Below are positions 10,016 to 27,024 of a stretch of DNA of 64,000 bases, piece after piece. How positions within the stretch are numbered: the first letter of the stretch is position 1; every line of letters starts with the position of its first letter. The stretch lies in the IMG/VR virus record IMGVR_UViG_3300021963_000036. One strand, written 5' to 3'. A program made the position numbers and the translations under genes. This DNA is from a virus. Lineage: Duplodnaviria; Heunggongvirae; Uroviricota; Caudoviricetes. The notes under the pieces were generated by a model that saw nothing but the letters and a program-made list of their open reading frames with translations, did no database searches and had not been told where the DNA came from.

Positions 10016-10210
10016 ATGGTTGCTGACGTAACAAGCACATTTACAGCTAGTCCTACAGTCACCCCAGCAAAAGCAACTGGCTCAACTATTGATGCTGCTT
10101 CTTTTCGAGAGATGGTGAATACGCTCGACGCATTGATTCAGCATAGTCATACCTTTACCGATGACTATACATCTAACTGTCAGTGTAACTGCCAGAGAGG
10201 CAGCATCTAA
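10016..10210 (+). CDS. Small protein with HxH motif and Cys-rich tail; putative radical SAM substrate
   Basis: 64 aa ending HSHTFTDDYTSNCQCNCQRGSI, directly abutting a SPASM radical SAM gene. Confidence 0.65.
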   Translation: MVADVTSTFTASPTVTPAKATGSTIDAASFREMVNTLDALIQHSHTFTDDYTSNCQCNCQRGSI

Positions 10211-11860
10211 GTGACAACAAATTATGTGAATGTGAAAAGGGTACTCAGTGAAGCCCAAAAGAAACGCTTAGAAAATCATACGCCAACTGTTGTTGAACAG
10301 GATGGCAAGTTAGTCACAACCTTTGAGACCATCAATATCTCAGGTAAAGGGCAGAAGACAAACAAACTCATTACGGTTCTTCCAGCTGAAGAAGAGCAAG
10401 CAGTTCCATTTGCCGATGCGGAGTTTCTATATCGTGACCTGATTCAAGTCAATGCGATGTTGACAAACGCATGTAACCTCAGTTGCTCTTACTGCTACGA
10501 GCAACACAATAAAGACTTTGGTCGATTCACAAAAGAATCCCTTAAGCAAGTCTATGATTGGATGAACTCTCGTAACAATGGCAAGAAGAAGGTGTTCCAA
10601 TTCTTTGGTGGTGAACCCCTTATCCATAAGCCTCTGATTAAAGAGTTTCTCGAAACCTACGATGAAGAGTTGTCGGGTAACTATAAAGACTATCGTGGCA
10701 CATACATTTCGATGTGTACAAACGGACTTCTATTGAATGATGAATTCATTGAGTTCTACTTTGGTAAACCATACACTCACATGATGTTGAGTCTTGATAC
10801 CCTCAATTCTGCAATTGATCATAGAGAAATCACTCCTGCACAGCTGAACAAAGTTCTCAAGAGTATCGACAAGATCGTAGAAGTTCTCGGTGATGATGCG
10901 AACCGTCTTGTGATTCGAGCTACGCTCTCACAAGAGACTTCACGTGACATGAAGAACTTCATCGAGACCTTGTATGACCACGGAATTCGTAACATGGTTG
11001 TTCATCCACTCGTGCTTGACTCAAGACATGGCTACATCTCATGGAAAGACGATAACTGGCAGAATATGCGAAATGCAATCTTCGGTGCACTTGAGAAGTA
11101 TGAAGACCTTTACATTCGATTCTCTGAAGGTGTTGGTCTGAAGGAAGATAGCAACTGCATGGTTGGCTCACATATGGTGGCTATCGATGCGTCTGGTGAC
11201 TTCTCAGGTTGCTACTTCTTTACGAATCAGAAATCTAATGGCGCTGACATCGCTGTGCTCGGGAATGTGTTCCAGGATCGTGTATACATAGATCGGTACA
11301 AGAAGTTTCAAAGCGCTTATCAGGAGATGTTCGACACAGAAGAGCAGTGTCGAACCTGCGACTATCAGGATGCTTGCTATCAATGCCCTGCTGGTAATAT
11401 GGATACTGGTTCGAGAATCTTCCGCCCTGACGATATGTGCCAAAAGATTGTAAAGCTTTACGTTGACTTCCAACATGACGTAGCAAAGAAACTATTCATG
11501 CGACACGTGAAGAAACGATACACTCGACTGCAAGAACATGGTGAAAAAGTCTTAGCTGCGGAGTTGCAGTACTTTTATGAGAAATTTAATGGGAGCGGCA
11601 TAGATGATTTTGAGCATTATTTACGGATGGATCTTCCTCATTATAGTGATGTCATACGTGCCTGGACCGTGGACAGCGAAACCCAAGCAGCCGATCTACG
11701 TTCGCTCTACAACGTCCTCGCAAAAAGATTCGACAAACCAAGAATCGATATCGAAATCACATCTGACTTCATAAAGTGTTATTATATCCAATGCATATCG
11801 ACGATCATCTTCGACAAGAACAGAATGAACGAAGTCAAACTTACGACTTTGCTGGAATAA
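10211..11860 (+). CDS. Radical SAM/SPASM protein
   Basis: CNLSCSYC, FFGGEPL, SPASM-like CMVG...GCYFF and CRTCDYQDACYQCPAG...C. Confidence 0.85.
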   Translation: MTTNYVNVKRVLSEAQKKRLENHTPTVVEQDGKLVTTFETINISGKGQKTNKLITVLPAEEEQAVPFADAEFLYRDLIQVNAMLTNACNLSCSYCYEQHNKDFGRFTKESLKQVYDWMNSRNNGKKKVFQFFGGEPLIHKPLIKEFLETYDEELSGNYKDYRGTYISMCTNGLLLNDEFIEFYFGKPYTHMMLSLDTLNSAIDHREITPAQLNKVLKSIDKIVEVLGDDANRLVIRATLSQETSRDMKNFIETLYDHGIRNMVVHPLVLDSRHGYISWKDDNWQNMRNAIFGALEKYEDLYIRFSEGVGLKEDSNCMVGSHMVAIDASGDFSGCYFFTNQKSNGADIAVLGNVFQDRVYIDRYKKFQSAYQEMFDTEEQCRTCDYQDACYQCPAGNMDTGSRIFRPDDMCQKIVKLYVDFQHDVAKKLFMRHVKKRYTRLQEHGEKVLAAELQYFYEKFNGSGIDDFEHYLRMDLPHYSDVIRAWTVDSETQAADLRSLYNVLAKRFDKPRIDIEITSDFIKCYYIQCISTIIFDKNRMNEVKLTTLLE

Positions 11861-12894
11861 GATCTGTCACAATCTATCTTGGCGATACGTGCAACTTCGA
11901 CTGCGTCTACTGTGATAGAGCATATATTAAGCACGACATTGGTTCACAGAACCTGAACAAATCTGACTTTGACGACATCATAGAGTTTATGAAAGTCGTT
12001 AAAGAACAAGCCAAAGATCTGAAAGCAATTTCATTTCATGGTGGCGAACCATTTTTATATGTGAAGAGAATGGACGAATTACTCGACGCGCTTGATCCGA
12101 TCTTTGGCAAAGACATGGAATACTACATCACGTCGAATGGATCGAAGATCGTTGAGAATGAATGGTTCTTTCAGAAGTGGCCAAAGATTCATATCACTCT
12201 GAGTTACGACTTTAATTATCAATTAGTCAATAGAGAATATGTAGACCTGAAAGCAATTTCAGATGTAATCTATCGTAACGATTGCTACATGATGTTTCAG
12301 TTTGTTATTCCACCAGACGGTTTTGGTGAAGACACACTTGCTGAAGTAATTCGATCATGCAAACTGGCTCGATGCGATACTATCAATATCATTCCACTTC
12401 GGCATCATCGTGGCGCAAGAAAGTTCAAAGTCCTTATTGACGATTTTGATATGAAGTGGTATAGTGTTTACTTAATGCGGTTCATTCATACGCTGTATGT
12501 ACAAGGAATCACTCTCAACATCGACGGAAACTATCATGGCATCGACAAACAATACTTAAACAACCACAGCAAAATGATTCTGAGTCCCGATGGATACGTC
12601 TATCCGGAATTCGATTATCTTGAGTATAAGAGAAAAGAATTTCGAATTGGTAAGTGGAAGGGCGGCATCGAACTCGATCGAGTCAAGGACGAGAATCAAT
12701 TCATTCTTCCCGGCTGTGTCTCGTGTCATATGAGAGACGCATGTGGATTGAAGTATCTCTATAAGATGTTCGATGAAGAGCCAAAGGGAAATTGTGTTGA
12801 CTTCTACACTACTATCAATCTCATGGTGAAACACCTTCATGCGCTCAAACAGAAACCAACTCTGATGCATTGGATTGGGATCGGCGATGGATGA
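11776..12894 (+). CDS. Radical SAM protein with partial SPASM-like C-terminus (start uncertain, 11776 or 11791)
   Basis: CNFDCVYC, FHGGEPF, C-terminal CVSCHMRDAC...C. Confidence 0.8.
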   Translation: MLLYPMHIDDHLRQEQNERSQTYDFAGIRSVTIYLGDTCNFDCVYCDRAYIKHDIGSQNLNKSDFDDIIEFMKVVKEQAKDLKAISFHGGEPFLYVKRMDELLDALDPIFGKDMEYYITSNGSKIVENEWFFQKWPKIHITLSYDFNYQLVNREYVDLKAISDVIYRNDCYMMFQFVIPPDGFGEDTLAEVIRSCKLARCDTINIIPLRHHRGARKFKVLIDDFDMKWYSVYLMRFIHTLYVQGITLNIDGNYHGIDKQYLNNHSKMILSPDGYVYPEFDYLEYKRKEFRIGKWKGGIELDRVKDENQFILPGCVSCHMRDACGLKYLYKMFDEEPKGNCVDFYTTINLMVKHLHALKQKPTLMHWIGIGDG

Positions 12895-13396
12895 ACTATA
12901 TCGAGCTGCATGTAGCGTGAAGACAATTCCGGCAATGAGCTACCACAATTGGAAGACGTGGCACGAATGGCCGTATCGCACGATTGCTGATCATATTACA
13001 CATGACAAAACTATCATCGACGTCGGTGCAGGTTGTGGCTTTCTAAGCATGCATCTTCTCATGACTGGAAAATGTGATAGGGTTATTGCTTACGATACAC
13101 GAGAAACCATGTGTGAGTTCATGTCGATATTGAGTAACGTATTAGGGCTCGCGACTCGACTTGATGTAAAGTGCGAACCTTTCCAAAGTAATCGACATGA
13201 CAACTTAACGGTCTCGACTCGACTTGGGTTTCCAAACATACTATTCAACAACAAAGCTACAACCGTAACGATGGCTCGTACAAAGGAATGTGAGCCGATC
13301 TTTAAGTACGTCGAAACTCCAATTGATTGGAATGAGAAAGTCGCTACTCGTGACGATGGATTCACTATGAGGTTGCTATGGAACTATCAGCAATAA
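12887..13396 (+). CDS. Class I SAM-dependent methyltransferase
   Basis: Motif I IIDVGAGCGFLS followed by VIAYD. ATG at 12887. Confidence 0.7.
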   Translation: MDELYRAACSVKTIPAMSYHNWKTWHEWPYRTIADHITHDKTIIDVGAGCGFLSMHLLMTGKCDRVIAYDTRETMCEFMSILSNVLGLATRLDVKCEPFQSNRHDNLTVSTRLGFPNILFNNKATTVTMARTKECEPIFKYVETPIDWNEKVATRDDGFTMRLLWNYQQ

Positions 13397-13746
13397 TTCT
13401 CCTATACGATGATGATTTTGAAGTTCCTCTCGAAGGAATCTATGGTGTTGTCTATATGATTCCGGGCTTGACAAGGCAATTCCCTTGGTGGATACGTCGA
13501 TTCTCTTTTGCTGAGCATTACCCTATGCCAGATTTTGTAATACCTAATCCAGGAAAGTCAACAGTAATCGGTGTGCCGCTGAGTGAAACTGCTCACGTGT
13601 ATCGCATGGCGATCTTTGGTCAACGTTGGATTGAAGACGTCAATAGAGAAATTGTTTCAACGTTTCCACCTGTGAATGAAGTGAGCGTGCAGGGAGATGA
13701 TTACGTTCCTGACATAGATTTGATGAGGGTTCTCCAAAATGTCTGA
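13378..13746 (+). CDS. Hypothetical protein
   Basis: 122-aa ORF overlapping both neighbours. Confidence 0.55.
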   Translation: MELSAIILLYDDDFEVPLEGIYGVVYMIPGLTRQFPWWIRRFSFAEHYPMPDFVIPNPGKSTVIGVPLSETAHVYRMAIFGQRWIEDVNREIVSTFPPVNEVSVQGDDYVPDIDLMRVLQNV

Positions 13747-14875
13747 TGAAGGCGAAGAGTTCCGTAAGTTCAAAGACCATGACTCGTACTTCATAACTGA
13801 AGATGCGCTCATGCCTCTACATCATGATATAACGTTTAGTCCGACTCGTAAATACTATTGTGCTGCGAATTGCCAAGTTTGTTACATCAAGAAGAAACTG
13901 AACGCACATCTACCGTTCTATTCGGAAGCTATTCCAGAGAAGATCACTAGTGAAGACGAGAAGCGATGGTACGACATTTTTAGTTACTTCTATGTGATAA
14001 GAGTTGTTGACGATCTGAAGTTTTTGAAAGCTCATTACCCTCACATCTATGGTTGGTACAAAGAGCATGCACCGACTTTCGAATACGGCATGACTGACAA
14101 CGCGATCATTCAACAACACGAGACTCTCATGGAACTCGACATGAAGAGTCTATCCGAGGTTGCATTGAGTGAAGAGTTCATGAACAAAGTGAATTCGAAA
14201 AAGAACTATAACAAAGTCATGGAAATCCTGCAAGACTATATTGACAAATACGATCTTCATAAAGTCAAAGTGATCAAGACTTCGAACGAAGAACTTCCAT
14301 ATCATGCAAGAGAACTTGTCGAATGGATCAATGACAAAGGAATCGTTACTTCACTTCACAATGATTATCGTAAAACAAATGTGAATGATAACGAACTTGG
14401 GAATGTTGATCACGATTTGAATGGGCTCTTTGATTATCAGAATAGTCACGTCCTTTGTTATAATGATCGAACGTATCAAGTCTATCGTGGTTCTTTGCAC
14501 CTGTATGGCGATCGATTCTTCTATAGTATTGACGATGCAACTGACATCAATTGGGATCCGTTTCATACGATGAATGGCGACTTCGATCATCAGAAGTTTA
14601 TGACCGATATGATCCAAGGCAAGTTTAATTTGTATTCTAAGTTTGCTAATGAATTAAAGAATGCTGGAAGCGATATCGCAGAAAAATTCCGTAGCTACTA
14701 TATAAATACTACTGACAAGTTTATGGTTGACCGTGAATTCAATTTCATTCCCAATATTATGCTGAGCGACAAATCAAAATACTATCACAAGTTGGTAGAA
14801 CTCGGTTATCGTCCTACTGAAGTTGGATTGTATTTACCAAATGGTTCTCCAAAACCAATTATTGGATTCAGGTAA
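13739..14875 (+). CDS. Divergent radical SAM-like protein
   Basis: CAANCQVC (CxxxCxxC) near the N-terminus; no GGEP and no SPASM cysteines. Confidence 0.55.
   Translation: MSDEGEEFRKFKDHDSYFITEDALMPLHHDITFSPTRKYYCAANCQVCYIKKKLNAHLPFYSEAIPEKITSEDEKRWYDIFSYFYVIRVVDDLKFLKAHYPHIYGWYKEHAPTFEYGMTDNAIIQQHETLMELDMKSLSEVALSEEFMNKVNSKKNYNKVMEILQDYIDKYDLHKVKVIKTSNEELPYHARELVEWINDKGIVTSLHNDYRKTNVNDNELGNVDHDLNGLFDYQNSHVLCYNDRTYQVYRGSLHLYGDRFFYSIDDATDINWDPFHTMNGDFDHQKFMTDMIQGKFNLYSKFANELKNAGSDIAEKFRSYYINTTDKFMVDREFNFIPNIMLSDKSKYYHKLVELGYRPTEVGLYLPNGSPKPIIGFR
14701..14708 (+). promoter_or_regulatory. T4 late promoter
   Basis: Exact TATAAATA about 175 nt upstream of the 14881 ORF. Confidence 0.55.
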
Positions 14876-14880
14876 AAGAA

Positions 14881-15252
14881 ATGGCAATATTAGCAGGAAC
14901 TACTTCTACTGACGTAGCATTATCGTTACGTACAACTTATACTACACCGCTGTTGGCACAAATCGCAAGCGGTAACACAGTGCAAGCTGCGCACATGACA
15001 TTACTCAAAAACTTCATTAATGCTATTGAACCGCATACTCATACGCTAACCGACTATTCTAAAATTCACGAATTTGGAAACACAGATAGTACATTATCAA
15101 CTGTAGATACTGTTACTGCCGTATCAACATCTCCTATATCAGCGACATATGCGACTGGTGGCACCATTACTGCAGCTGATTATACAGCAATGCGTACAAC
15201 TGTAGAGGCACTCAGAGTACACAATCACGCATGGGATGATCTAACGGCATGA
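14881..15252 (+). CDS. Small fibre-like protein with two HxH-motif repeats; putative radical SAM substrate or structural partner
   Basis: Internal repeat ASGNTVQAAH...HTHTLTD / ATGGTITAAD...HNHAWDD, similar to the 10016 protein. Confidence 0.65.
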   Translation: MAILAGTTSTDVALSLRTTYTTPLLAQIASGNTVQAAHMTLLKNFINAIEPHTHTLTDYSKIHEFGNTDSTLSTVDTVTAVSTSPISATYATGGTITAADYTAMRTTVEALRVHNHAWDDLTA

Positions 15253-16523
15253 TGCAATTACCTTGTTATGAACTCAGTGATGGTAGTTCGTTTTATTATG
15301 ACTCTCATTCAAATACAATCTACAACACAGAAGGTGAGCAATTAAGTTTGCCACCTTCAAAAGCTATTGAGTACTACGAAGCTGAAGCGGCGAATCATGG
15401 TGTTGATTATAAGGTCAACAATCCATTTGCGATTCGTATCCTTCTTGGACATGCTTGTAATTACAACTGTACGTATTGCATGCAAAAAGATATTGGAAAT
15501 CCTTTAGAGAGACCGCAGTCAATCTATACCGAAACCTTCATTGTTAATATCAAGAAGAATCTAAATCTCGATAGGCTCAATCGAATCGAACTTTGGGGTG
15601 GTGAACCATTTTTATATTGGAAAGACATGGTCGAGCTTATGAAGTTCTTTGACTCTCCTGATCGAGAGTTCTTCATATCGACAAACGGTTCGGCCTTTGT
15701 ACAAAAACATGTTGACTTCTTCGCGACTTTGAAATCAACTATTCTCATCAGTTGTAGTCATGACGCAGTTGGTCAAAAAGAACTTCGCGGCGACGACATT
15801 CTTGAGAATCCAAAGAAGGTTGACATCATTAAGAAACTGCTTGCACTTCCAAACGTACAACTGGGTTTCTCTTCAGTAGTAAGCAATCAGAACCACGATC
15901 TATACGCGATCAACGATTACTTCAGAGACTTCTGTGATCGCGAAGGCATCAAGGATATGAAGATCACTTTCATTCCAGCAAAGAACTACGACGTGCATGA
16001 TACTGAGATGGCTTCATCGAATTACATCCTTCGTGGTGAGAAACTGAAAGCATTTGCTCAGCACTTATATGACTTTACTCAGGATTCGTTTAAAGATCGA
16101 ACGAAGTTCTTACGTAATAACATCTTGTATTCACCTGAAGGTGTGATCGACTACGCAAAGTTCTTAAGACAGCAGACTCCTATTACAACAAAGTCTGGAT
16201 GTGGTGCCGATTCGAACGATGTATTATCCGTTGATATTCAAGGAAACATTCGCTTGTGTCCTCATACTGACAGTAGTTTTATTGCTGGTAAGTTAGAAGA
16301 CGTCGGGTCTGTAAAGATCAAAGGTATGGACCTTGCCCGTAAGAAAAATCATTGCATGAAGTGCCCAGTAAAACGCTTGTGTAGATCGTCGTGCCCTATC
16401 AAGTTTCCAGATCACGTGTTCTATTCTAATTGCGCACTCGAAAAAGTCTGGTGGGGAAACATTCAACTTCACGCATTCAAATTGTTATTCGGACAAACTG
16501 TGTCCATGAAAGGTACATCATGA
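15249..16523 (+). CDS. Radical SAM/SPASM protein
   Basis: CNYNCTYC, LWGGEPF, CGAD...LCPH, CMKCPVKRLCRSSCP...C. Confidence 0.85.
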   Translation: MMQLPCYELSDGSSFYYDSHSNTIYNTEGEQLSLPPSKAIEYYEAEAANHGVDYKVNNPFAIRILLGHACNYNCTYCMQKDIGNPLERPQSIYTETFIVNIKKNLNLDRLNRIELWGGEPFLYWKDMVELMKFFDSPDREFFISTNGSAFVQKHVDFFATLKSTILISCSHDAVGQKELRGDDILENPKKVDIIKKLLALPNVQLGFSSVVSNQNHDLYAINDYFRDFCDREGIKDMKITFIPAKNYDVHDTEMASSNYILRGEKLKAFAQHLYDFTQDSFKDRTKFLRNNILYSPEGVIDYAKFLRQQTPITTKSGCGADSNDVLSVDIQGNIRLCPHTDSSFIAGKLEDVGSVKIKGMDLARKKNHCMKCPVKRLCRSSCPIKFPDHVFYSNCALEKVWWGNIQLHAFKLLFGQTVSMKGTS

Positions 16524-17266
16524 AACTGAACAAAGCACTCATTGAAGAACATACATCGATGCTACGAAACCATTCGTTGCTTGTGACGAATAATATTCAA
16601 AGCAAAGCTGATCTTCGAATCTTTATGGAACATCACGTCTTTGCTGTATGGGATTTTATGTCACTACTCAAGACTCTTCAAAATGAAGTCGTTCCGAGTA
16701 AGACTATATGGATGCCAACTCGTGGAACACGTTCTGATATCGCACGAATGATCAATGAGATTGTTTTAGGGGAAGAGACTGATATCGCTCCGGGAGGTGG
16801 ATCTATTAGTCACTTTGATCTATACCTTCAGGCGATGTTAGAAGTCAACGCAAGTACTGGTCCTATTTTAACGTTCCTAAACAATCTAGAAACAAACTTG
16901 TCAATACCGTATCATCTTGCCTCGAGGCCAGCTGAGAAGTTCATGCGAAACACATTTGGTACTATCAATCGTGGACCGCATTGTGTTGCTGCATCTTTTG
17001 CGTATGGTCGCGAAACGATCATTCCAGATATGTTCACTCGACTATTAACTCAATTAAATATAAGCAAGCTTGAAGCCCCAAAGTTTCATTATTATCTTCA
17101 AAGACATATCGAAGTTGATGGTGATGAGCATGGCCCAATGTCTGAACATCTCGTTGAATACTTCTGTAATAATGATCCAATTAAGATTCATGAAGCTGAA
17201 CAATCTGCTGTTTCGGCGATCAAAGCCCGTATTGAGTTCTTCAACGATATCGAAAAACTTATGTAG
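16520..17266 (+). CDS. DUF3050-family heme-oxygenase-like (dimetal oxidase fold) protein
   Basis: FMEHHVFAVWDFMSLLK, INEIVLGEETD, SHFDLYL, GRETIIPDMF, RHIEVDGDEHG. ATG at 16520. Confidence 0.75.
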   Translation: MKLNKALIEEHTSMLRNHSLLVTNNIQSKADLRIFMEHHVFAVWDFMSLLKTLQNEVVPSKTIWMPTRGTRSDIARMINEIVLGEETDIAPGGGSISHFDLYLQAMLEVNASTGPILTFLNNLETNLSIPYHLASRPAEKFMRNTFGTINRGPHCVAASFAYGRETIIPDMFTRLLTQLNISKLEAPKFHYYLQRHIEVDGDEHGPMSEHLVEYFCNNDPIKIHEAEQSAVSAIKARIEFFNDIEKLM

Positions 17267-17275
17267 GCAAATTCT

Positions 17276-17283
17276 TATAAATA
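17276..17283 (+). promoter_or_regulatory. T4 late promoter
   Basis: Intergenic TATAAATA followed by an AAGGAG RBS. Confidence 0.8.
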
Positions 17284-17308
17284 GTCATAGAACTTAAGGA
17301 GTAAATCT

Positions 17309-17888: not shown

Positions 17889-20788
17889 TGTCACTCATCA
17901 GAATCAAACGATCAGGTTCTTCCGGATCACCTGGCGCACTCGCTCAAGGTGAAATGGCCTACTCGTTTCTTGGCGGTACACAGTCTAATGGCGGTGAACG
18001 TTTATATATCGGCACTGGTACAGAAACTGGCGGTATTGCAGCGAATATTGAAGTAATTGGTGGTAAATATTTCACTGATAAGTTAGATCATGTTCCGGGA
18101 ACGCTCACCGCAAGTTCAGCATTAATCGTTGACGCAGATAGTAAAATCGATGTACTCAATATCGATAATATCACCATCAACGGAAATTCAATTACATCTA
18201 CAGACGCAAATGGAAACATCGTTCTCGACCCAAATGGTACAGGAAGTGTTAACGTAAGTTCTGCTAAGATCATAAACCTTGCTACACCAACGACCGGCAC
18301 AGATGCTGCGACTAAACAATACGTCGATGATAGATTTGCAGGTGGCTCTGTTGCTATTCAAATCGCTGCAGACTCTGGTACAACCGATTCGGTATTAACG
18401 AACGAAATTGTCACCTTCACTGGCGATACTGGAATTACAACAACTGTAGCTAACAACTCAATCACTATTGATCTTGACGACACTGCTGTCACGCCGGGTT
18501 CGTATGGTAACACAACTTCTATCGCTACATTCACTGTAGATCAACAAGGTCGTTTGACCGCGGCAAGCACTGCAGCGATTGCAACAAACCTGTCAATCGC
18601 CGGTGATAGTGGTACAGACTCAGTTTCATTGCTCAGTGATACTCTTAATTTCAGTGGTAACACTGGTATCACCATTGCTGTTACTAATAATAGAGTCGAT
18701 GTAGATCTTGACGACACCGCAGTAACTCCTGGGTCATATGGTAATACAACTTCTATCGCTACATTTACTGTAGATCAACAAGGTCGTTTGACAGCAGCAG
18801 GTACTGCAGCAGTTGCTACGATTCTTAATATTGCTGGAAACTCTGGCACTGATGGTATATCACTTATCTCTGATACATTGTCTGTAATCGGTGATACAGC
18901 AATCACTGCTACAGTTACAAACAATACAATCACACTCAATCTAGACAACACCACTGTAACTCCTGGAACTTATGGTACAGCAACAGCAATTCCTACGATT
19001 GTTATAGATCAACAGGGTCGTATTACTTCATCGTTTGCGAACACGATTGCTATTCCTTCTACTCAGATCACAGATTTTGCAGAAGCTGTTCAAGATACTG
19101 TTGGTGGTATGCTCACCGGTACACAGAATGGTATCAGCGTAACCTATACTGATAATGGTGTAGGCGGCGGGTATCTTAACTTCGATGTTGCAGATCCTAC
19201 AATTACATTGAGTGGTGATGTTGTTGGTTCTGCAACAATGACAAATCTTGGTAACGTGACTATTAGCACTACGATCCAGCCAAACTCAGTTGCTCTTGGA
19301 ACTGACACAACTGGAGATTATGTGTCAAGTCTTGTTGCTGGAACCGGTGTTACACTTACGAATAATTCTGGTGAAAGCGCGACGCCAACAATTGCTATTG
19401 GGCAAGACGTATCAACTACATCTAACGTCACGTTTGCTTCGGCTACATTCACAGGTTCTGTGTCTATTGATGGTGACTTATACATCGGTGGTAACACCGC
19501 AAGCATTAGCGTGTCAAACCTCAGTGTTGACGATAACATAATCTATCTTAACGCGAATAGTACTGTTACAAATCCAGATATAGGATTTGTGGGCAACTAT
19601 AATGACGGTACCTACGCCCATACCGGCTTCTTCCGCGACGCAAGTGACGGATATTTTAAAGTATTTAAGGGATATACACTCGAACCGGACGTTGGGCCGT
19701 ACATTGACACCACACATGCTTCATTTGCGTTAGCAGATATTGAAGCAGCAAACTTCAGAGGTGCTTTGATTGGCAACGCTGATACTGCGACCAAGTGGGC
19801 AACTGCTAGAACAATTAATCTCTCTGGAGACGTAAATGGTTCTGTGTCTATCGATGGTACAGCTAACGTAACTATCACTACAACGATTCAACCAGATTCA
19901 GTCGCTCTTGGAACTGACACAACTGGTAACTATGCAGGTTCTGTTGCAGTATCTGGTAATGGTCTATCTATCATTGGCACGGCTGGTGAAGGAACTGATT
20001 ATACAATCAACTCAAATGCTACAAGTCTAGTAACTGCTTCTACTATTGTTTACAGAGATGCATCTTCTAACTTTGCAGCAAATACGATTACCGCTGCGCT
20101 TGTTGGTAATGCTTCAACAGCAACTACATTACAAACCGCAAGAACTATATCTCTTTCTGGAGACGTTGCAGGTTCGGTATCGTTTGATGGCAGCGGCAAC
20201 GTTAATATCACAACAGCAGTACAGCCGGATTCGGTTGCTCTTGGAACTGACACTACTGGTAACTATGTTGCATCGATCACGAATGGTAACTATATTACTG
20301 GCGCTGATAGTGGATCAGAAGCTTCTGCACTTACTTTAAACGTTGATGCTACAACTACTCCAACACCAAACAAAGTTGTTGCTCGTGATGCATCTGGTAA
20401 CTTCTCAGCAAATACTATCACTGCTGCTCTTACTGGTAATGCTTCTACGGCAACTACACTTCAAACTGCTCGTACGATTACACTGTCCGGAGACGTTGCA
20501 GGTTCTATATCGTTCAATGGTAGTTCAGACGTCAATATAAGTACTACAATACAGGCTGATTCAGTAGCTCTTGGAACTGACACAACCGGTAACTATGTTG
20601 CTACTATCGCAGTTACATCCGGTACTGGTTTAAGTATATCTGGATCAGGTTCTGAAACAGCTGCAGTTACTCTTGCAGGTATTGATGCTACTACATCTGT
20701 TAAAGGTGTTGCAAGCTTCAGTTCAACTAACTTTACAGTTACTTCTGGTGCAGTATCAATTAGCACTATAGATGGTGGAACTTACTAA
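17888..20788 (+). CDS. Tail fibre protein 2
   Basis: N-terminal IRIKRS...L..GE.AY attachment motif; repeats TPGSYGNTTSIATFTVDQQGR and DSVALGTDTTGNY. Confidence 0.8.
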   Translation: MSLIRIKRSGSSGSPGALAQGEMAYSFLGGTQSNGGERLYIGTGTETGGIAANIEVIGGKYFTDKLDHVPGTLTASSALIVDADSKIDVLNIDNITINGNSITSTDANGNIVLDPNGTGSVNVSSAKIINLATPTTGTDAATKQYVDDRFAGGSVAIQIAADSGTTDSVLTNEIVTFTGDTGITTTVANNSITIDLDDTAVTPGSYGNTTSIATFTVDQQGRLTAASTAAIATNLSIAGDSGTDSVSLLSDTLNFSGNTGITIAVTNNRVDVDLDDTAVTPGSYGNTTSIATFTVDQQGRLTAAGTAAVATILNIAGNSGTDGISLISDTLSVIGDTAITATVTNNTITLNLDNTTVTPGTYGTATAIPTIVIDQQGRITSSFANTIAIPSTQITDFAEAVQDTVGGMLTGTQNGISVTYTDNGVGGGYLNFDVADPTITLSGDVVGSATMTNLGNVTISTTIQPNSVALGTDTTGDYVSSLVAGTGVTLTNNSGESATPTIAIGQDVSTTSNVTFASATFTGSVSIDGDLYIGGNTASISVSNLSVDDNIIYLNANSTVTNPDIGFVGNYNDGTYAHTGFFRDASDGYFKVFKGYTLEPDVGPYIDTTHASFALADIEAANFRGALIGNADTATKWATARTINLSGDVNGSVSIDGTANVTITTTIQPDSVALGTDTTGNYAGSVAVSGNGLSIIGTAGEGTDYTINSNATSLVTASTIVYRDASSNFAANTITAALVGNASTATTLQTARTISLSGDVAGSVSFDGSGNVNITTAVQPDSVALGTDTTGNYVASITNGNYITGADSGSEASALTLNVDATTTPTPNKVVARDASGNFSANTITAALTGNASTATTLQTARTITLSGDVAGSISFNGSSDVNISTTIQADSVALGTDTTGNYVATIAVTSGTGLSISGSGSETAAVTLAGIDATTSVKGVASFSSTNFTVTSGAVSISTIDGGTY
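18362..19063 (+). repeat. 3 x 234-nt (78-aa) coding tandem repeat in fibre 2
   Basis: IA(A/G)(D/N)SGT units start at 18362, 18596 and 18830, with near-identical DNA between units 1 and 2. Confidence 0.8.
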
Positions 20789-20836
20789 TACTATAATCTC
20801 ATAGGCTATATAGCCATTATACACAGATGAGGACAC

Positions 20837-23800
20837 ATGTCAACACTTATTAAAGCAAAAAGAAGCTCTGTACAGGGCAAAGTTCCTCTTACTACGGACT
20901 TAGAACTCGGCGAGTTTGCTATCAACACGTTTGACGGCAAACTCTTCATTAAAAAGAATGTGAATGGTACCGAAAGTATCATTGACATAACTGCAGCTGC
21001 AGTTCCTACACTAGATAGCGTAGTCATTGGTGGAAATACCACGACAAATTCTATTACCGTTGGTGGACTTACTGTTAATGGCGATATTACTGTAACTGGT
21101 ACGGTGGACGGTCGCGACGTATCTGTAGATGGAACTAAACTAGACGGCATTGAATCTGGGGCCACCGGTGATCAAACCGCAACTGAAATTCTTACTGCTA
21201 TTAAAACTGTTGACGGGTCTGGATCTGGACTTGACTCTGATCTTTTAGACGGTCAAGACGGATCATATTATCTGGATTGGACAAACGCTACAAACAAACC
21301 GGATCCAGTAATTACCCTTGCTGGCGATCTGAGTGGATCTGTTACACTTACCGATCTTGCATCAGGTACACTCACTGCTACTATTGTCGCAGATTCGGTT
21401 GCTCTTGGAACGGATACCACCGGTAACTATGTTGCTTCGATTACAAATGGATCTTACATTACCGGTGGAAACGGCGGCTCTGAAGGCGCTGCGCTTACCC
21501 TTGCCGTAGATGCTGCTACGACTGCTACTGCGTCAAAGGTCGTAGCAAGGGATGCATCTGGTAACTTTAGCGCTAATACGATTACTGCAGCCCTTACTGG
21601 CAATGCTACAACTGCAACAACTTTGCAGACATCCAGAACTATTGGCGGAGTTTCATTCGACGGTTCTGCAAACATTAACTTACCCGGAGTTAATACCACA
21701 GGCAATCAAAATACTACTGGTTCGGCAGCAACACTTACTACTGCTAGAACTATTTCTCTTGGTGGGGATCTTTCAGGTTCAGCGTCGTTTAACGGATCCA
21801 CCAATATAACGATCACTGCGACAGTTCAACCAGATTCAGTTGCTCTTGGAACTGATACAACTGGTAACTACGTTTCAAGCGTAACCGGTGGCACAGGTGT
21901 GACTATTACCGGCACAATCGGTGAAGGTTGGTCGCCGACTATTTCTATCGGCCAAAACGTTGCCACAACATCTAACGTAGAATTTCATGATCTGATCCTT
22001 TCTGGAAACCTCACGATTAACGGTACAACAACTACTATTAACGCTACTGAACTAGCGATTAGCGATAACATAATTTATTTGAATGATGGTCTCGCCGTAG
22101 CTAATCCAGATCTTGGTATTGTTGGTAATTATAACGATGGTACCACCTATGCCCATACTGGTGTATTCAGAGACGCTACTGATGACCGTTGGAAATTTTT
22201 CAAAGGATATACGCCGGAACCTGGCCAAACAATTGACACTGCTCACGCCTCATTCCAATATGCCGATGTACAGGCAAATACATTCTATGGTGCATTAAGC
22301 GGTAATGCGACAACAGCTACAACTCTACAGACTGCAAGAACGATCGCAATCAGCGGTGATATAACTGGAACAGCAACTTCATTCAACGGCGGCGCTGATA
22401 TTACTATTTCATCAGCGATTACTGCTGGTGCAATTGTTAATGCTGACATCAATGCAAGTGCTGCAATTGCCGATACTAAACTTGCTACTATCTCAACAGT
22501 AGGCAAGGTATTAAATTCTGCTACAACCGCAACTAACCTGAATACTGCAAGCGCTATTGTAGCACGAGATGCTTCCGGAAACTTTACAGCCGGCACAATT
22601 ACTGCGGCACTTACCGGAGCAGCTTCGAGTAACGTATTGAAAGCTGGCGATACAATGACCGGCAAATTAAACACTGCTGGAAATGATAGTGCTAGATTAA
22701 TTGAAAGTTTAAATACAAGCGCAAGTAGTGCAATTCAATTTTATGTCGAACATAACCTCGCTACGACAAATGTAGGAAATGCACGAGGAGTGCTCAATCT
22801 TGTGAGCACCGGTGCACTCACCATCGGTGGAAGTGTTGCTCTTACAGCAAGCAACTACAGCACTTATGCGTCGCCTCTTGCTGGATCATCGTCGTTAACT
22901 ACTACTGGCACAGTTACATCTGGTACATGGTCAGGATCATTCGGTGCAGTGTCAGGTGCAAACTTAACATCACTAACCGCTGGTAACTTGACCGGAACTA
23001 TTCCATCAGCCGTTTTAGGTAACTCAACCCATTATATCGGTACTACCGCAATTGCCCTTAACAGGGCAAGCGGTTCGCAAACTCTAACGGGCGTTAGTAT
23101 TGATGGTAATGCTGCCACAGTAACAAACGGTGCTCTCACTACCGGAACATTAGCACAATTTGCCGCCACCACTTCCTCCCAACTTGCCGGTGTTATCTCG
23201 GACGAAACTGGATCGGGCGCGCTTGTATTTGGTACGTCACCTTCATTTACAACTGGTATTAACGCTGCTAGTGCAACGATGGCACTATTTGACACCACAG
23301 CAACAACTGTAGATGCGTTCGGTGCTGCCACGTCACTCAATTTGGGTTATGATGGTACAGCGTCATCGTCAACAACAAATATATCAGGTGGCGCAGCAGC
23401 CTCTGCAGTAACAAAGACGATTAATATTGGTATAAATGGTGCTTCTGGATCTATCACAAACATTAATATTGGCTCTGCGACTGCTGGAGCAGTCGGTAAT
23501 ACAGTAGTTAACTCTACATCGCTAATTGTTCCGGGCAATATGTCTGTCGGTTCAAATATTCTTGCTACTACTGGACCAATTCTAACGCTCGGCACTCTTG
23601 CCGGCGGTGGTTCTGGTTATATGGACGGTACACATACTAACCAAGGTCTTACAGGTGGTACTGGTGCGTATATGCTTGGCACGGTTACTGTTGCGCTTGG
23701 AGTTGTAACCGCTATTACTCTTACTTGGGGTGGTCATAGATATTCGGCAGGCGATGTTCTTACTGTGCCTTCGTTATCTACAACTTTAGCTACAACTGCT

Positions 23801-24913
23801 GCTAGCGGTAGTGGTACTACTGTAACGCTCACATTTGCTGCTCAAGCTGCAGCACCGTTTCAAGTCGGTTCACAAATTATTGTAGCGGGTGTTACACCTA
23901 CTGGTTACAACGGAACATTTACCGTCACTGCATGTACGACAACCACGGTTTCTTATGCGAATGCAACGACAGGTGCTCAGACTGTTGCAGGCACAGTTAA
24001 GATGGGCGCTGCACTCACGAACTCAACTATTCCAGTAGCTACAGTACAAGGCACTGATGTATACGTATCTTCTTGGACATCAGACTCAATTGGTGCAAGA
24101 ATTCGTCTTGAAGCAAATGATACCTCAATATCTGCTGGTCAAGAATATGGTGCAATCGCCTTTAGTAGTCGTGATGCTACTGTAAATGGATCTGGCGATT
24201 TAGCATTAATCCGTGGGGTTGCCGTTAATACTTCCGGTGGTGGCGAAATACAATTCTGGACTGCAGGAAATGGCGAAGCACCTAATATATCAGCAACTAT
24301 TACTTCAGGCGGAAACTTTAGACTTTATAACGCGGCTGGTACATTCTATTCAGAGCTTGCAAACAGCCCAACTGCAAACAGAACAATTAGTTTCCCAGAT
24401 TCCACGTTTACTGTAGCAGGAACTAATATAGCTCAGACATTTACTGCTGTTCAAACACATAGCGCAAATATTATACCTTCAACCACAGCTGCATACGATC
24501 TTGGCACAACCGCACTCCGCTGGAACGTTATGTATGGTACAGCAACTGCTGCTCGATACGCTGACCTTGCAGAAAAGTATCTAGCAGATGATGAGTATCC
24601 CGTAGGTACCGTTATGAGTGTTGGTGGTGAAGCAGAAGTAACTGCTGCAACTCCTGAAACAGCACATTCAATCGTAGGTGTTGTCTCTGAAAAGCCAGCC
24701 TATCTTATGAATGACTGCTTAGAAGGTGGTACGGCAATCGCACTTCGCGGCCGTGTTCCAGTAAGAGTAGTTGGAGTAGTGAAAAAAGGCGACAGACTTA
24801 CAGTCTCTACTACTCCGGGTTGTGCAGTTTCTGACAACAACGCAGTTAGATCCTTTGCAATTGCCCTGCATGATTCAAACAAAACTGAAATAGTAGAAGC
24901 AATCATTCTATGA
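20837..24913 (+). CDS. Tail fibre protein 3 with C-terminal intramolecular-chaperone-like domain
   Basis: N-terminal IKAKRSS...P...L..GE..IN..DGKLF, repeat modules shared with fibres 1 and 2, C-terminal YADLAEKY...ALRGRVPV. Confidence 0.8.
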   Translation: MSTLIKAKRSSVQGKVPLTTDLELGEFAINTFDGKLFIKKNVNGTESIIDITAAAVPTLDSVVIGGNTTTNSITVGGLTVNGDITVTGTVDGRDVSVDGTKLDGIESGATGDQTATEILTAIKTVDGSGSGLDSDLLDGQDGSYYLDWTNATNKPDPVITLAGDLSGSVTLTDLASGTLTATIVADSVALGTDTTGNYVASITNGSYITGGNGGSEGAALTLAVDAATTATASKVVARDASGNFSANTITAALTGNATTATTLQTSRTIGGVSFDGSANINLPGVNTTGNQNTTGSAATLTTARTISLGGDLSGSASFNGSTNITITATVQPDSVALGTDTTGNYVSSVTGGTGVTITGTIGEGWSPTISIGQNVATTSNVEFHDLILSGNLTINGTTTTINATELAISDNIIYLNDGLAVANPDLGIVGNYNDGTTYAHTGVFRDATDDRWKFFKGYTPEPGQTIDTAHASFQYADVQANTFYGALSGNATTATTLQTARTIAISGDITGTATSFNGGADITISSAITAGAIVNADINASAAIADTKLATISTVGKVLNSATTATNLNTASAIVARDASGNFTAGTITAALTGAASSNVLKAGDTMTGKLNTAGNDSARLIESLNTSASSAIQFYVEHNLATTNVGNARGVLNLVSTGALTIGGSVALTASNYSTYASPLAGSSSLTTTGTVTSGTWSGSFGAVSGANLTSLTAGNLTGTIPSAVLGNSTHYIGTTAIALNRASGSQTLTGVSIDGNAATVTNGALTTGTLAQFAATTSSQLAGVISDETGSGALVFGTSPSFTTGINAASATMALFDTTATTVDAFGAATSLNLGYDGTASSSTTNISGGAAASAVTKTINIGINGASGSITNINIGSATAGAVGNTVVNSTSLIVPGNMSVGSNILATTGPILTLGTLAGGGSGYMDGTHTNQGLTGGTGAYMLGTVTVALGVVTAITLTWGGHRYSAGDVLTVPSLSTTLATTAASGSGTTVTLTFAAQAAAPFQVGSQIIVAGVTPTGYNGTFTVTACTTTTVSYANATTGAQTVAGTVKMGAALTNSTIPVATVQGTDVYVSSWTSDSIGARIRLEANDTSISAGQEYGAIAFSSRDATVNGSGDLALIRGVAVNTSGGGEIQFWTAGNGEAPNISATITSGGNFRLYNAAGTFYSELANSPTANRTISFPDSTFTVAGTNIAQTFTAVQTHSANIIPSTTAAYDLGTTALRWNVMYGTATAARYADLAEKYLADDEYPVGTVMSVGGEAEVTAATPETAHSIVGVVSEKPAYLMNDCLEGGTAIALRGRVPVRVVGVVKKGDRLTVSTTPGCAVSDNNAVRSFAIALHDSNKTEIVEAIIL

Positions 24914-25410
24914 TAACAACAAGTGAAGCGTATGAGATTCTTTCTCATACGCTATTATATGAGCAGAAGTTAGTAAGAGCAATAGACACTCAGCACCTTC
25001 AACACGACGTGCACGACTTCGGTGAACTCATTCGGTATAGATCAAGCGGATGTTCGATCAAAGTTGAAGGAATGGAACGATTTTCTATTGACATCTTCAA
25101 CCAAGGTAGATTGTATGCTAAGTCGTATCTGCACGACGGTCCAGTGACTTGCCATATGTTCATCTCTCCGGCCGGTTCACCATCATTTCCGATGCATACC
25201 GATCCAGATCATGTAATCATACATTGCTGCGAAGGTATTAAGCGGATGAAGATTCGAGATGATATGATTGATCTTCATCCTGGCTCGTACGCATATATAC
25301 CTTATGATACGCCACATATGGCGTTGAATGAGTATGATGCTCTTACACTTAGTTTTGGATTAGAGCGATTTTTGAAGGACAAGATGAATGAACTGGGTGT
25401 TCTATCTTAA
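24910..25410 (+). CDS. JmjC/cupin-type Fe(II)/2OG oxygenase
   Basis: SFPMHTDPDHVII...EGIKRM (HxD) and YIPYDTPHMA (distal His). Confidence 0.7.
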   Translation: MITTSEAYEILSHTLLYEQKLVRAIDTQHLQHDVHDFGELIRYRSSGCSIKVEGMERFSIDIFNQGRLYAKSYLHDGPVTCHMFISPAGSPSFPMHTDPDHVIIHCCEGIKRMKIRDDMIDLHPGSYAYIPYDTPHMALNEYDALTLSFGLERFLKDKMNELGVLS

Positions 25411-26407
25411 GACTACTGAAACGTGCAATCTGAATTGCAGTCATTGTTTCACAAATGGTATCAATGGAGCAAAGATCTATTTTGATCCGGTAAAAGTATC
25501 GAATTGGATTCACAACTTTCATAAAGAAAAATTCAAAGACGGCGATACGATTCACTATGAGTTTCATGGCGGAGAACCGTTTCTTGCACCACTAGAACAC
25601 ATGAAAATGGTTGTAGACCGATGCAAAGATTTATCAACTAATCAATCATTCGGAGCAACGACCAATTTAACATACAAGTTAAAACAGGATCAGATAGAGT
25701 TTATAAAAAATGAACTTGGTGGTAGGATTGGCACATCCTGGGATCCTAAGATTCGGTTCACTAATAACAAGCAATATAAGTTGTGGCATTCTAACGTTAA
25801 GACCTTGCTAGCCGAAGGCATTCACGTCAAGTTGTTTATAAGCGTCACTCGAGATACGATCTCTTATAAGCCGATCACGTTACTGCGATGGATTCGTAGA
25901 CTTGGAGTTCAAGAAGTATCGTTTGAGCGGTTAACAAGTAACGGATCAGCTAAGATGTTTCCACACATTTTCCCAACTAATATAGAGCTTAATAAGTGGT
26001 TTGTAGACCTACACCTCGACTCCGAACATTATCAGGCTCGCAATTGGTTTGATAACGAATCTTTAGAGAACATATATTCTAAGTTTGAAAAGGGGTACAC
26101 TTGTGCTGGAACTTTCTGTAGAGATTGTGAAGAAAAGATTTTCACAATAAACGCGGATGGCACAATATCTGGTTGTCCTAATGCTGCACCAGAGTTTCAT
26201 TATGGATCAATAGACGACACTGTTAGCGCCATTATAAATAGTCCAAGAAGGCTTCGTAGTATTGTAGAAGAACGAAGCAGAAACCCTAAGTGCTACACAT
26301 GCCCAGTCTTTCAGTATTGTAATGGCGATTGCCATCAGTTAGAATGGCAAGATGACATATGTGGAGCTCCGAAGAGTCTGATGAAATTATTGGCTAAGAT
26401 GGAATAA
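25388..26407 (+). CDS. Radical SAM/SPASM protein
   Basis: CNLNCSHC, FHGGEPF, CAGTFCRDC...GCPN, CYTCPVFQYCNGDC...C. Confidence 0.85.
   Translation: MNWVFYLKTTETCNLNCSHCFTNGINGAKIYFDPVKVSNWIHNFHKEKFKDGDTIHYEFHGGEPFLAPLEHMKMVVDRCKDLSTNQSFGATTNLTYKLKQDQIEFIKNELGGRIGTSWDPKIRFTNNKQYKLWHSNVKTLLAEGIHVKLFISVTRDTISYKPITLLRWIRRLGVQEVSFERLTSNGSAKMFPHIFPTNIELNKWFVDLHLDSEHYQARNWFDNESLENIYSKFEKGYTCAGTFCRDCEEKIFTINADGTISGCPNAAPEFHYGSIDDTVSAIINSPRRLRSIVEERSRNPKCYTCPVFQYCNGDCHQLEWQDDICGAPKSLMKLLAKME
26233..26240 (+). promoter_or_regulatory. T4 late promoter
   Basis: Exact TATAAATA about 170 nt upstream of the 26410 ORF. Confidence 0.55.
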
Positions 26408-26409
26408 GT

Positions 26410-27024
26410 ATGGCTACTTTAACAAATAACATAAATGACCAAAACGTAGTAGACCGTTTCGCTGACTATGTTGTTGCAACTGCAAATGCTAGTATTATAT
26501 ATGCTGATAATGCTAACCCATTCGCACCAACTTATTCATCGTATTTCCCAAACATATGGGGTGGCTCGACAACGGGTAAAACGATCGGTATCACTGGAAC
26601 AAACTTAGGAGGTACTGGATCACTTATTACTGCTGCAACAATCGTAAGTGTGTTGCGTGCAGAAACTACCGCATATACTCGAATTAGAAACCTCAGAGCA
26701 GTATTAACGATTAGTGGAGCTGGCAATACCGTCGGTGCTGGTACTAGAGTCGATGCTGGCCCGATTACTGGTCAGGGTCCTGGAAACATTATTGACGTCA
26801 CTGGTAAAGCAAATCTTAGCACAACATATCTGCAAACTTTAGGCGCGACTGCGTCAACTGGTATAGCTACTGATAGTGATATTAATACTTTGAATTTAGA
26901 AACATTTTTTACGAATTTGCGAACTGCATATACTACTGCTAGGGATACTGTACAACTACAGCAAGTTACAGTATGTCACGCATCATGTCACAGCAATTGC
27001 CACAGCTCGCGTGGTCGGAGATAA
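26410..27024 (+). CDS. Fibre-like protein with C-terminal (CHxx)3 tail; putative radical SAM substrate
   Basis: T/A/G-rich body ending VCHASCHSNCHSSRGRR; its only Cys and His residues are in the tail. Confidence 0.65.
   Translation: MATLTNNINDQNVVDRFADYVVATANASIIYADNANPFAPTYSSYFPNIWGGSTTGKTIGITGTNLGGTGSLITAATIVSVLRAETTAYTRIRNLRAVLTISGAGNTVGAGTRVDAGPITGQGPGNIIDVTGKANLSTTYLQTLGATASTGIATDSDINTLNLETFFTNLRTAYTTARDTVQLQQVTVCHASCHSNCHSSRGRR

Follow-up and report, generated by a model that had tools for sequence, protein, structure and literature searches.

Small proteins beside SPASM enzymes in a marine phage

We analyzed a 64,000-nucleotide stretch of viral DNA ("the window"; IMG/VR record IMGVR_UViG_3300021963_000036), which is part of an uncultured marine T4-like myovirus. 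PHROGs recognise its terminase, sheath, portal, scaffold, and major head protein, and the last of these shares about 70% identity with its counterparts in the Sinorhizobium phages phiM12 and phiN3 and 68% with that of the Methylophilales phage Melnitz. The window contains two unrelated phage systems. Each pairs a gene for a small late protein, whose Cys-rich C-terminus is conserved, with a neighboring gene for a radical S-adenosylmethionine (rSAM) enzyme with a SPASM domain. System A (8997-17266) includes the small proteins p64 and p123, and system B (24910 to about 30381) includes p204. Both lie in a region (6427-34875) in which ten rSAM genes with a CX3CX2C motif are interleaved with two very long fiber genes (17888-24913); fiber genes flank the part that holds the small proteins and the rSAM genes. 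(Names such as rSAM549 give an enzyme's length in amino acids, L numbers are related loci or contigs, and P numbers are proteins from our searches.)

The features of system A, all on the plus strand, are:

8997 to 10010: a 337-residue protein, a conserved partner just upstream of the Cys-tailed peptide; fold unassigned
10016 to 10210: p64, 64 residues, with one helix-HxH unit and the tail DDY-TSN-CQCNC-QRGSI; 27 homolog clusters
10067 to 10168: helix-HxH unit of p64, residues 18-51; 65.6 bits with the unit profile
10169 to 10207: Cys tail of p64, residues 52-64, with C-x-C-x-C in the HxH register (family alignment)
10211 to 11860: rSAM549, an rSAM/SPASM enzyme, PapB/CteB-like (Pfam Radical_SAM and SPASM; Cys motifs)
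11776 to 12894: rSAM372, an rSAM enzyme (Pfam/NCBIfam; 35% identical to ORF077 of phage RP12)
12875 to 13396: a 173-residue methyltransferase-like protein (Methyltransf_18 at 25.2 bits, just under the cut-off of 27)
13739 to 14875: a 378-residue divergent rSAM-like protein with CAANCQVC (CX3CX2C) at residue 41; 30% identical to RP12 ORF078
14881 to 15252: p123, 123 residues, with two helix-HxH units and no cysteine; 36 homolog clusters
14956 to 15060: unit 1 of p123, residues 26-60; 56.7 bits
15142 to 15246: unit 2 of p123, residues 88-122; 61.0 bits
15249 to 16523: rSAM424, an rSAM/SPASM enzyme, 36% identical to RP12 ORF079 and 27% identical to JWF gp030 and RSP15 ORF045
16430 to 17266: a 278-residue DUF3050/heme-oxygenase-like protein (PF11251, E = 1.4e-77; 34% identical to RP12 ORF080)

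The stop codon of p64 (10208-10210) is followed immediately by the GTG start codon of rSAM549, and a Shine-Dalgarno sequence (GAGGA) lies 8 nucleotides (nt) upstream of p64. The end of p123 overlaps the ATG of rSAM424 at 15249. We use "cassette A" for rSAM549, rSAM372, the 378-residue CX3CX2C protein, rSAM424, and the DUF3050 protein. The Ralstonia jumbo phage RP12 has the same cassette (ORF076-080; L004), with identities of 30-42%, and the set is also found on a 174-kb contig (L023).

An earlier note on the window (the original prediction) had pointed out that p64, p123, and p204 each abut a gene for a full SPASM rSAM enzyme. We found this adjacency as described, and the three enzymes (rSAM549, rSAM424, and rSAM339) all carry CX3CX2C and the seven-Cys SPASM signature, with SPASM matches in Pfam and NCBIfam. 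Small conserved proteins with Cys ends do stand beside SPASM rSAM enzymes in the tail-fiber region, and the pairing is kept in distant phages.

p64 and p123 share a helix-HxH unit

p64 and p123 share a unit of about 35 residues, which consists of G-x-x-[IV]-x-A-[AS], an amphipathic helix, and then H-x-H-x-[FWLY]-x-[DE]. Across the whole window, the extended pattern of this unit has only three occurrences, one in p64 and two in p123. When compared with hhalign, the p64 and p123 families match with 96.6% probability (E = 5.8e-10). The only invariant columns among 33 aligned units are the two histidines, and HxH is also invariant in the alignments of the p64 and p123 families. Judging by these alignments, p64 and p123 are paralogs built from the 35-residue unit.

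The original prediction had proposed that a shorter motif (G-x-x-[IV]-x-A-A followed by an amphipathic helix) is common to p64, p123, and p204. The strings that it named are all present: ATGSTIDAASF in the 64-residue open reading frame (ORF) at 10016-10210, ASGNTVQAAHM and ATGGTITAADY in the 123-residue ORF at 14881-15252, and GTGSLITAATI in the 204-residue ORF at 26410-27024. Three of these four segments, those in p64 and p123, are homologous, and the real unit is longer, as it adds the invariant HxH. The segment in p204 does not belong with them (see below).

We also searched for named relatives of the small proteins. Against Pfam, NCBIfam, and PHROGs, none of p64, p123, and p204 matched a named family; the only matches were to phrog_31780 and phrog_35144, neither of which has an assigned function. 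Neither megablast with 9000-17500 nor tblastn with p123 and p204 as queries found a match in the phage collection. (It was searches with the enzymes, not with the small proteins, that led to the relatives in RP12, RSL2, Atu_ph07, and DT01.) An AlphaFold2 (AF2) model of the p123 monomer has a mean predicted local distance difference test score (pLDDT) of 76.5, and comparing it to the Protein Data Bank with Foldseek gave nothing at E <= 0.001. In a wide search with VIA-align, the best match was a designed filament (Z = 6.0), and necks of the TssK/IglD type had Z = 5.3-5.8; all of these are within the tool's chance range. Complex predictions for three copies of p64, using the p64-family alignment, scored 0.01 and 0.02, which does not speak to trimerisation in either direction.

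p204 belongs to a different system

The features of system B, again on the plus strand, are:

24910 to 25410: a 166-residue cupin/JmjC-like protein (Cupin_2, JmjC_2), 31-41% identical to RSL2 ORF066, DT01_067, and Atu gp172
25388 to 26407: rSAM339, an rSAM/SPASM enzyme without an N-terminal extension, 42-49% identical to jumbo-phage rSAMs
26410 to 27024: p204, 204 residues, a globular alpha/beta protein with a (CHxS)3-RGRR tail; more than 319 homologs
26617 to 26637: G-S-L-I-T-A-A, residues 70-76 of p204, the fourth motif of the original prediction, at the start of an internal helix (3.9 bits, independent E = 0.2)
26971 to 27021: tail of p204, VCHASCHSNCHSSRGRR, residues 188-204 (family alignment)
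27011 to 27739: a 242-residue conserved cassette-B partner, 27-32% identical to DT01_064, Atu gp169, and RSL2 ORF070
29371 to 30381: a 336-residue rSAM/SPASM-like protein of cassette B (Cys motifs), 26-28% identical to Atu gp168 and DT01_062

The start of p204 lies 3 nt past the end of rSAM339, which itself begins directly at the rSAM motif. AF2 gives p204 a confident globular alpha/beta fold (pLDDT 83.7, predicted template modeling score 0.78), and the segment from the original prediction is held in a helix (residues 75-91) inside this fold. Homology of p204 with the HxH unit can be rejected: the unit profile scores -0.2 bits on the whole of p204 and 3.9 bits on the segment, and hhalign gives probabilities of 0.6% and 4.4% against the p64 and p123 families, with alignments that do not place GTGSLITAATI on the unit. 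By these comparisons, p204 is unrelated to p64 and p123 and belongs to a different family and a different cassette. With the p204 model, Foldseek against the Protein Data Bank gave nothing at E <= 0.001, and the best Z in the wide VIA-align search was 3.9, in the chance range. A fold search of BFVD found only uncharacterised phage relatives.

The tail of p204 is its own kind as well. Its invariant residues are C189, H190, S192, C193, H194, C197, H198, R201, R203, and R204, and in C-H-A-S-C-H-S-N-C-H-S-S there is a cysteine at every fourth residue, in three family-invariant repeats (this is a pattern match only). The period is thus 4 in C-H-x-x, versus 2 in the C-x-C-x-C of p64. The original prediction had likened the two tails because both are Cys-rich and contain SNC and a near-terminal RG. 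Both tails are indeed nearly invariant and both have the near-terminal R-G, but SNC is not conserved in the p204 family.

The gene order of cupin, rSAM339, tail protein, and 242-residue protein is kept in metagenomic T4-like phages and in RSL2, Atu_ph07, and pPa_SNUABM_DT01; in all, four lineages of jumbo phages have conserved the system. RSL2 ORF068, Atu_ph07 gp170, and DT01_065 share the tail, and all end in [VFI]-C-H-x-S-C-H-x-S-C-H-x-x-R-[GS]-R-R; their bodies differ, with lengths of 178-296 residues. The papers on these jumbo phages list the cupin and rSAM genes as accessory and give no function for them (PMC5468394, PMC8066314, PMC11898562).

The unit in other phages and in bacteria

We searched 1.84 billion proteins with a profile of the unit and found 193 representatives at E <= 0.001, which form four groups. 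The first group consists of two-unit proteins of 120-170 residues. The second consists of one-unit peptides of 54-97 residues, most of which end in D-[DT]-Y-x-[ST]-[NV]-C-x-C-x-C...R-G-[ST]-h. In the third group, units are fused to other parts, such as a beta-rich C-terminal domain (P0257 and P0280) or a Hint domain (P0231), or three units are joined in one chain (P0293). The genes for P0231 and P0257 come after a fiber-like gene. These fusions and gene positions make the scaffold look fiber-related, in line with the suggestion in the original prediction.

The fourth group consists of long bacterial proteins without HxH (P0213, P0216, and P0219), and these match positions 1-25 of the profile only. 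Because such proteins match the first half of the unit, that half (G-x-x-[IV]-x-A-A plus the helix) is a generic repeat without any linkage to rSAM genes. Proteins with the complete unit, HxH included, form a specific phage family. So the profile search that the original prediction had proposed came out against the short motif and in favor of a longer unit. (Bacterial proteins including P0213, P0216, P0219, P0284, P0296, and P0318 carry a widespread triple repeat, G-x-x-I-[KR]-A-[AS]-H-h-x-E-L-R-x-A-V-N, again without HxH. It often follows an FN3-like region, and the first half of the phage unit has in it a generic relative.)

We then counted units per locus by six-frame translation. There are three in all nine cases with adequate coverage: the window, L001/L003, RP12, L018, L021, L022, L023/L024, L026, and P0293, whose three units are in one chain. 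L026, a 65-kb myovirus contig, encodes a two-unit protein with a beta-rich domain and a 50-residue one-unit peptide, which ends in ...HTHNYSDD and has no cysteine. No ORF with CX3CX2C lies within 7 kb of these unit genes. P0293 also lacks a Cys tail, and we saw no rSAM gene next to it. Because the units in L026 occur without a nearby rSAM gene or a Cys tail, the unit is independent of the enzymes and looks structural.

These results bear on the main proposal of the original prediction, which was that G-x-x-[IV]-x-A-A plus the helix is a single leader, common to the three proteins and recognised by each neighboring SPASM enzyme. This now seems very improbable and is largely refuted. The string does appear to be concentrated in these proteins: their 391 residues contain it four times, and the rest of the window's six-frame ORFs just two times. 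However, p204 is unrelated to the other two proteins, the short segment matches generic repeats, and the unit is found where there is no rSAM gene. Furthermore, the three enzymes belong to different subfamilies, and one of them lacks any N-terminal recognition domain. The prediction had left room for either a recognition or a trimerisation segment. Trimerisation fits with three units per locus, and the recognition half is not supported. Overall, we see two separate systems and not one shared leader: the shared segment is of an assembly type, and the Cys tails are likely enzyme targets.

The Cys tail and its register

In the alignment of the p64 family, residues 25-63 are almost invariant, and the invariant residues in the tail are N54, C55, Q56, C57, N58, C59, R61, G62, and S63. 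The original prediction had imagined a variable modified core, but what it took as variable is the most invariant part of the protein.

The consensus for the tail of the one-unit peptides is D-D-Y-x3-(C-x)n-R-G-[ST]-h. The spacing H-x-H-x-Phi-x-D-x-Y-x-x-x-C-x-C-x-C is kept in every tailed member that we saw, including divergent ones, so that both histidines, the aromatic residue, the aspartate, the tyrosine, and all of the cysteines are in one two-residue register. Such a register agrees with these residues lining one side of a beta-strand that faces a common axis; it agrees equally well with a fixed distance between a docking element and the sites of modification.

Tailed peptides are found beside rSAM genes in other phages as well. 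In RP12, an unannotated 65-residue ORF with one HxH unit lies between ORF074 and ORF075 (L004 963-1160, which is about 82888-83085 of NC_041911.1). The peptide ends in ...HTHVFYDNYGSNCNCNCACTRGSL (NCNCNCACTRGSL), and the last base of its ORF is the first base of ORF075. Based on its unit and its tail, this is a copy of p64 in a cultured phage. RP12 ORF074, ahead of the cassette genes, is a two-unit protein. On L023, a protein with two units and a Hint domain and a 67-residue Cys-tailed peptide are encoded upstream of the full cassette A set. Divergent one-unit peptides with Cys tails adjoin an rSAM549-type gene in L017 and L018 and an rSAM424-type gene in L021.

Alternating cysteines are also found at the ends of annotated tail fibers, adjoining rSAM424-like genes (27% identical) in the Achromobacter phage JWF (L005) and the Ralstonia phage RSP15. 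The C-terminus of RSP15 ORF048 is ...NTNCQCGN. In JWF gp028, the Cys end ...QNCNCDCNCNCS comes directly before a Hint domain. (In JWF gp028, at L005 2655-4106, this C-terminal, intein-like domain begins immediately after an (N-C)5 run. In P0231, at L023 7001-8356, the C-terminal Hint domain comes after two HxH units and a beta-rich region. In proteins of this type, self-cleavage by Hint would expose the Cys run as the mature C-terminus.)

Given these tails, could the small proteins simply bind metals? HxH sites are the metal sites of the trimeric T4 fibers gp12 (the short fiber) and gp37 (the tip). If p64 and p123 were metal-binding structural proteins and nothing more, then the HxH and Cys tails would serve, in a small fiber or tip, as ligands of Fe, Zn, Cu, or an Fe-S cluster. 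The ten rSAM enzymes encoded nearby would act on other fiber proteins, sugars, lipids, or cofactors, and would be linked to the small proteins merely by a late operon. Besides the precedent from T4, the single register of H, H, F, D, Y, and Cys, as on one strand face, and the occurrence of the unit without rSAM genes agree with this explanation. The islands also encode B12-binding rSAMs, 2-oxoglutarate (2OG) oxygenases, and the methyltransferase-like protein, whose substrates are unassigned. Nevertheless, we consider it unlikely. The Cys tail is present in every rSAM-linked locus that we saw and is absent from the one rSAM-free locus, L026, which suggests that the tail depends on the enzymes. 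Translation of the small genes is coupled to that of peptide-maturase-type SPASM enzymes, and unrelated phages place fiber ends with alternating cysteines beside rSAM genes.

The enzymes resemble peptide maturases

The best match of rSAM549 in NCBIfam is to PapB, at 111.9 bits versus a cut-off of 340, and its nearest solved structure is CteB (5WGG; E = 2e-14). At the position where CteB has its RRE, the recognition element for peptides that are ribosomally synthesised and then post-translationally modified (RiPPs), rSAM549 has 83 unmatched N-terminal residues; PqqD was not hit in the Pfam scan. rSAM339 and rSAM424 score 59.6 and 43.3 bits with the PapB model, and rSAM339 scores 22.7 bits with the SCIFF maturase model (cut-off 425). 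Because the scores are below all of the family cut-offs, we do not assign the enzymes to the PapB, SCIFF, CXXX-repeat, Hxs, or anSME families.

These similarities raise another explanation, in which the systems make classical RiPP natural products: the leaders of p64 and p204 would be cut off, and the released Cys-rich cores would act on the host or on competitors. The gene layout (a precursor and then an rSAM/SPASM gene), the N-terminal extension of rSAM549, and the similarity of the enzymes to RiPP maturases are all as expected. Several other observations make this quite improbable. First, we found no leader peptidase or exporter among the ORFs of 6427-34875 when these were scanned with Pfam, NCBIfam, and PHROGs. 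Second, the C-terminal two thirds of p64 is invariant throughout, which extends beyond a core. Third, p204 is a folded protein of 204 residues (according to AF2), and rSAM339 has no N-terminal domain. Finally, the same tails are found on full-length tail fibers, the unit is fused to structural domains, and the genes are in the late structural region.

A proposed role in the virion

The reading we lean toward is that the HxH unit is an assembly module, that the Cys tails are substrates of the rSAM cassette, and that the products stay with the virion as module proteins. The helix-HxH unit would be the assembly module of a small fiber-associated protein, not a leader for an enzyme. Based on the unit counts and on analogy, p123 and p64 might assemble 2+1 into a pseudo-threefold module, whose six histidines might hold a metal, as do the HxH sites in the T4 fibers gp12 and gp37. 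The Cys tail would be the substrate of cassette A, and the small module would most probably be locked by Cys thioether cross-links that the cassette puts in. (We infer thioether chemistry because the best matches of rSAM549 are PapB and CteB.) In system B, the (C-H-x-S)3-R-G-R-R tail of p204 would probably be modified by the cupin and the rSAM339 that are encoded just upstream. In both systems, the products would remain proteins of a virion module and would not be diffusible peptides. There is a precedent for cross-linking of a whole protein by a SPASM rSAM enzyme, as CrpC does this to CrpA (PMC13692751).

Some of our observations weigh against this proposal. The enzymes are far below every curated cut-off in NCBIfam. 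Although p123 lies against rSAM424 and is preceded by a promoter-like site of its own, it contains no cysteine; some other modification, or none, may apply to it. The neighbor of the tailed protein varies, from rSAM549 in the window to an rSAM424-type enzyme in L021, JWF, and RSP15. RP12 ORF074 and RSL2 ORF068 are annotated only as hypothetical proteins, and the AF2 monomer models of p204 and p123 are compact rather than fiber-like. The 2+1 assembly and its metal site are suggested by unit counts and analogy, and HxH and C-x-C could bind a metal with no enzymatic modification involved.

A wider proposal, which we offer tentatively, is that RiPP-type radical-SAM chemistry is used by many unrelated phages on parts of their own virions. 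These would include a stapled 2+1 mini-fiber with six histidines and a (CHxS)3-RGRR tail that is processed by a cupin and an rSAM enzyme. If the tails are stapled by enzymes, this would be a previously unrecognised means for phages to harden or tune the adsorption apparatus, and the enzymatic cross-linking of fiber or tip proteins would count as a general kind of structural modification in phages that has yet to be described. In the three-unit HxH module, a compact natural pseudo-trimeric metal site would be split over two genes. The systems are present in cultured phages (RP12, RSL2/RSF1, FLC6/8, Atu_ph07, pPa_SNUABM_DT01, JWF, and RSP15).

Comparison with known systems

Known radical-SAM/SPASM peptide maturases come from bacterial natural-product clusters, and a few cellular protein substrates are known as well. 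Our full-text literature search found no publication on these phage proteins, or any that links SPASM rSAM maturases to phage fiber proteins.

The ranthipeptide/SCIFF systems (PapB/PapA, which makes freyrasin, and CteB/CteA) resemble the phage systems in that a full-SPASM rSAM gene lies beside a short gene for a Cys-rich substrate. In the phage, p64 ends at 10210, rSAM549 starts at 10211, and p204 and rSAM339 are nearly as close; the genes are co-oriented, and the pairing is kept in relatives. In contrast to PapB and CteB, the phage enzymes score far below the cut-offs. The phage substrate also carries a helix-HxH assembly unit, and its cysteines are in C-x-C-x-C instead of C-x3-D. The phage genes lie in a tail-fiber region with four or five further enzymes and with no protease or exporter that we could find, and the phage product is probably a virion-module protein.

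QhpD is a SPASM rSAM enzyme that cross-links cysteines in a protein subunit, QhpC. In QhpD/QhpC and CrpC/CrpA (PMC13692751), the cross-linked protein stays functional, which makes these the closest functional analogy to what we propose. They differ in being archaeal or bacterial and cellular, without an HxH unit or a phage context, and the analogy drawn here is one of function. (The QhpD model, TIGR03906, gives 69 bits versus a cut-off of 453.)

The T4 fibers gp12 and gp37 have several likenesses to the phage unit: an invariant HxH, three copies of it (per assembly in T4 and per locus here), a two-residue, beta-type register after it, and a setting among fiber genes. In T4, the homotrimer of a long fiber supplies the three copies, whereas in the window they are split 2+1 over two tiny proteins, and elsewhere they are in one chain. 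As for a relation of the units to gp12 or gp37, there was no Pfam match, and neither Foldseek nor VIA found anything above chance, the best being the TssK-type necks (Z = 5.3-5.8).

The strict four-residue period of cysteines in the p204 tail, beside an rSAM/SPASM gene, is reminiscent of the CXXX-repeat system (TIGR04115). However, p204 has only three C-H-x-S repeats, followed by RGRR, it has an obligate cupin partner, and it is a folded phage protein of a family with 180-300 residues. We reject membership in this system, as rSAM339 and rSAM549 score 24 and 72.7 bits with TIGR04115 (cut-off 350) and no substrate model was matched. Membership in the His-Xaa-Ser system (HxsA/B/C/D) is rejected as well: the best score is 69 bits versus 370 for HxsB and 29.8 versus 267.9 for HxsC. 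Neither p204 nor p64 matched any NCBIfam model at E <= 0.01 (HxsA included). We also considered the anaerobic sulfatase maturases, which make formylglycine. The score of rSAM339 is 50.6 bits versus 349, and the target motif C/S-x-P/A-x-R does not fit, as the last repeat in p204, C-H-x-[SA]-R, has S, G, or N where P or A is required.

Late expression

The motif TATAAATA, of the T4 late-promoter type, has 12 matches in the window, versus 3.3 expected. All of these are on the plus strand, and most are 26-58 nt ahead of structural genes. One copy concerns the small proteins of system A:

14701 to 14708, plus strand: a late-promoter-like TATAAATA site, 180 nt upstream of p123 and within the 378-residue gene

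This site is kept at -180/-181 in L001, L011, and L013, whose p123 proteins are only 46-68% identical. The p64-like genes in L017 and L018 have TATAAATA directly upstream, at -24 and -57. Late expression, with a boost to the small proteins, would fit this pattern. (There is another copy at 26233-26240, about 180 nt upstream of p204 and inside the preceding gene. The site at p204 is not kept in relatives.)

Other genes in the region

The 337-residue protein upstream of p64 has homologs at the equivalent place in L021 (31% identity, E = 4e-38), L017, and L018. It has no matches in Pfam, NCBIfam, or PHROG, and an atlas look-up gave no lead (score 0.78). The 378-residue protein matches phrog_36229 (E = 1.6e-33) and is conserved in RP12 (ORF078), L018, and L023. 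It has no match to Radical_SAM in Pfam; from its CX3CX2C motif, it looks like a very divergent rSAM enzyme.

Beyond the two systems, the region from 6427 to 34875 includes:

6427 to 8445 and 30332 to 32110: B12-binding rSAM genes (two of the ten)
28892 to 29374 and 32107 to 32628: two genes with weak similarity to 2OG-Fe(II) oxygenases

Together with the DUF3050 heme-oxygenase-like gene, the cupin gene, and the methyltransferase-like gene, the ten rSAM genes make up a commitment that is unusually large for a phage. Nishimura et al. described a T4-like marine genome with 12 rSAM genes and gave no function for them (PMC5332604). If our proposal is true, it would explain why some marine T4-like phages have ten or more rSAM genes.

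Between the DUF3050 gene and the long fiber genes (17309-17888), ORFs of 110 and 81 residues match PHROGs 1084/3304 (L-shaped tail fiber assembly-like) and 13853. The same pair of ORFs follows cassette A in L011. Since the pair lies downstream of the cassette in both, cassette A appears to be tied to the start of the long fiber genes.

Finally, in L021, 1.5 kb without called genes (within 3859-5716) is followed by a 108-residue ORF whose match to the window's B12-binding rSAM is confined to the C-terminal end (43% identity). This may be a miscalled or interrupted gene for a B12-binding rSAM.

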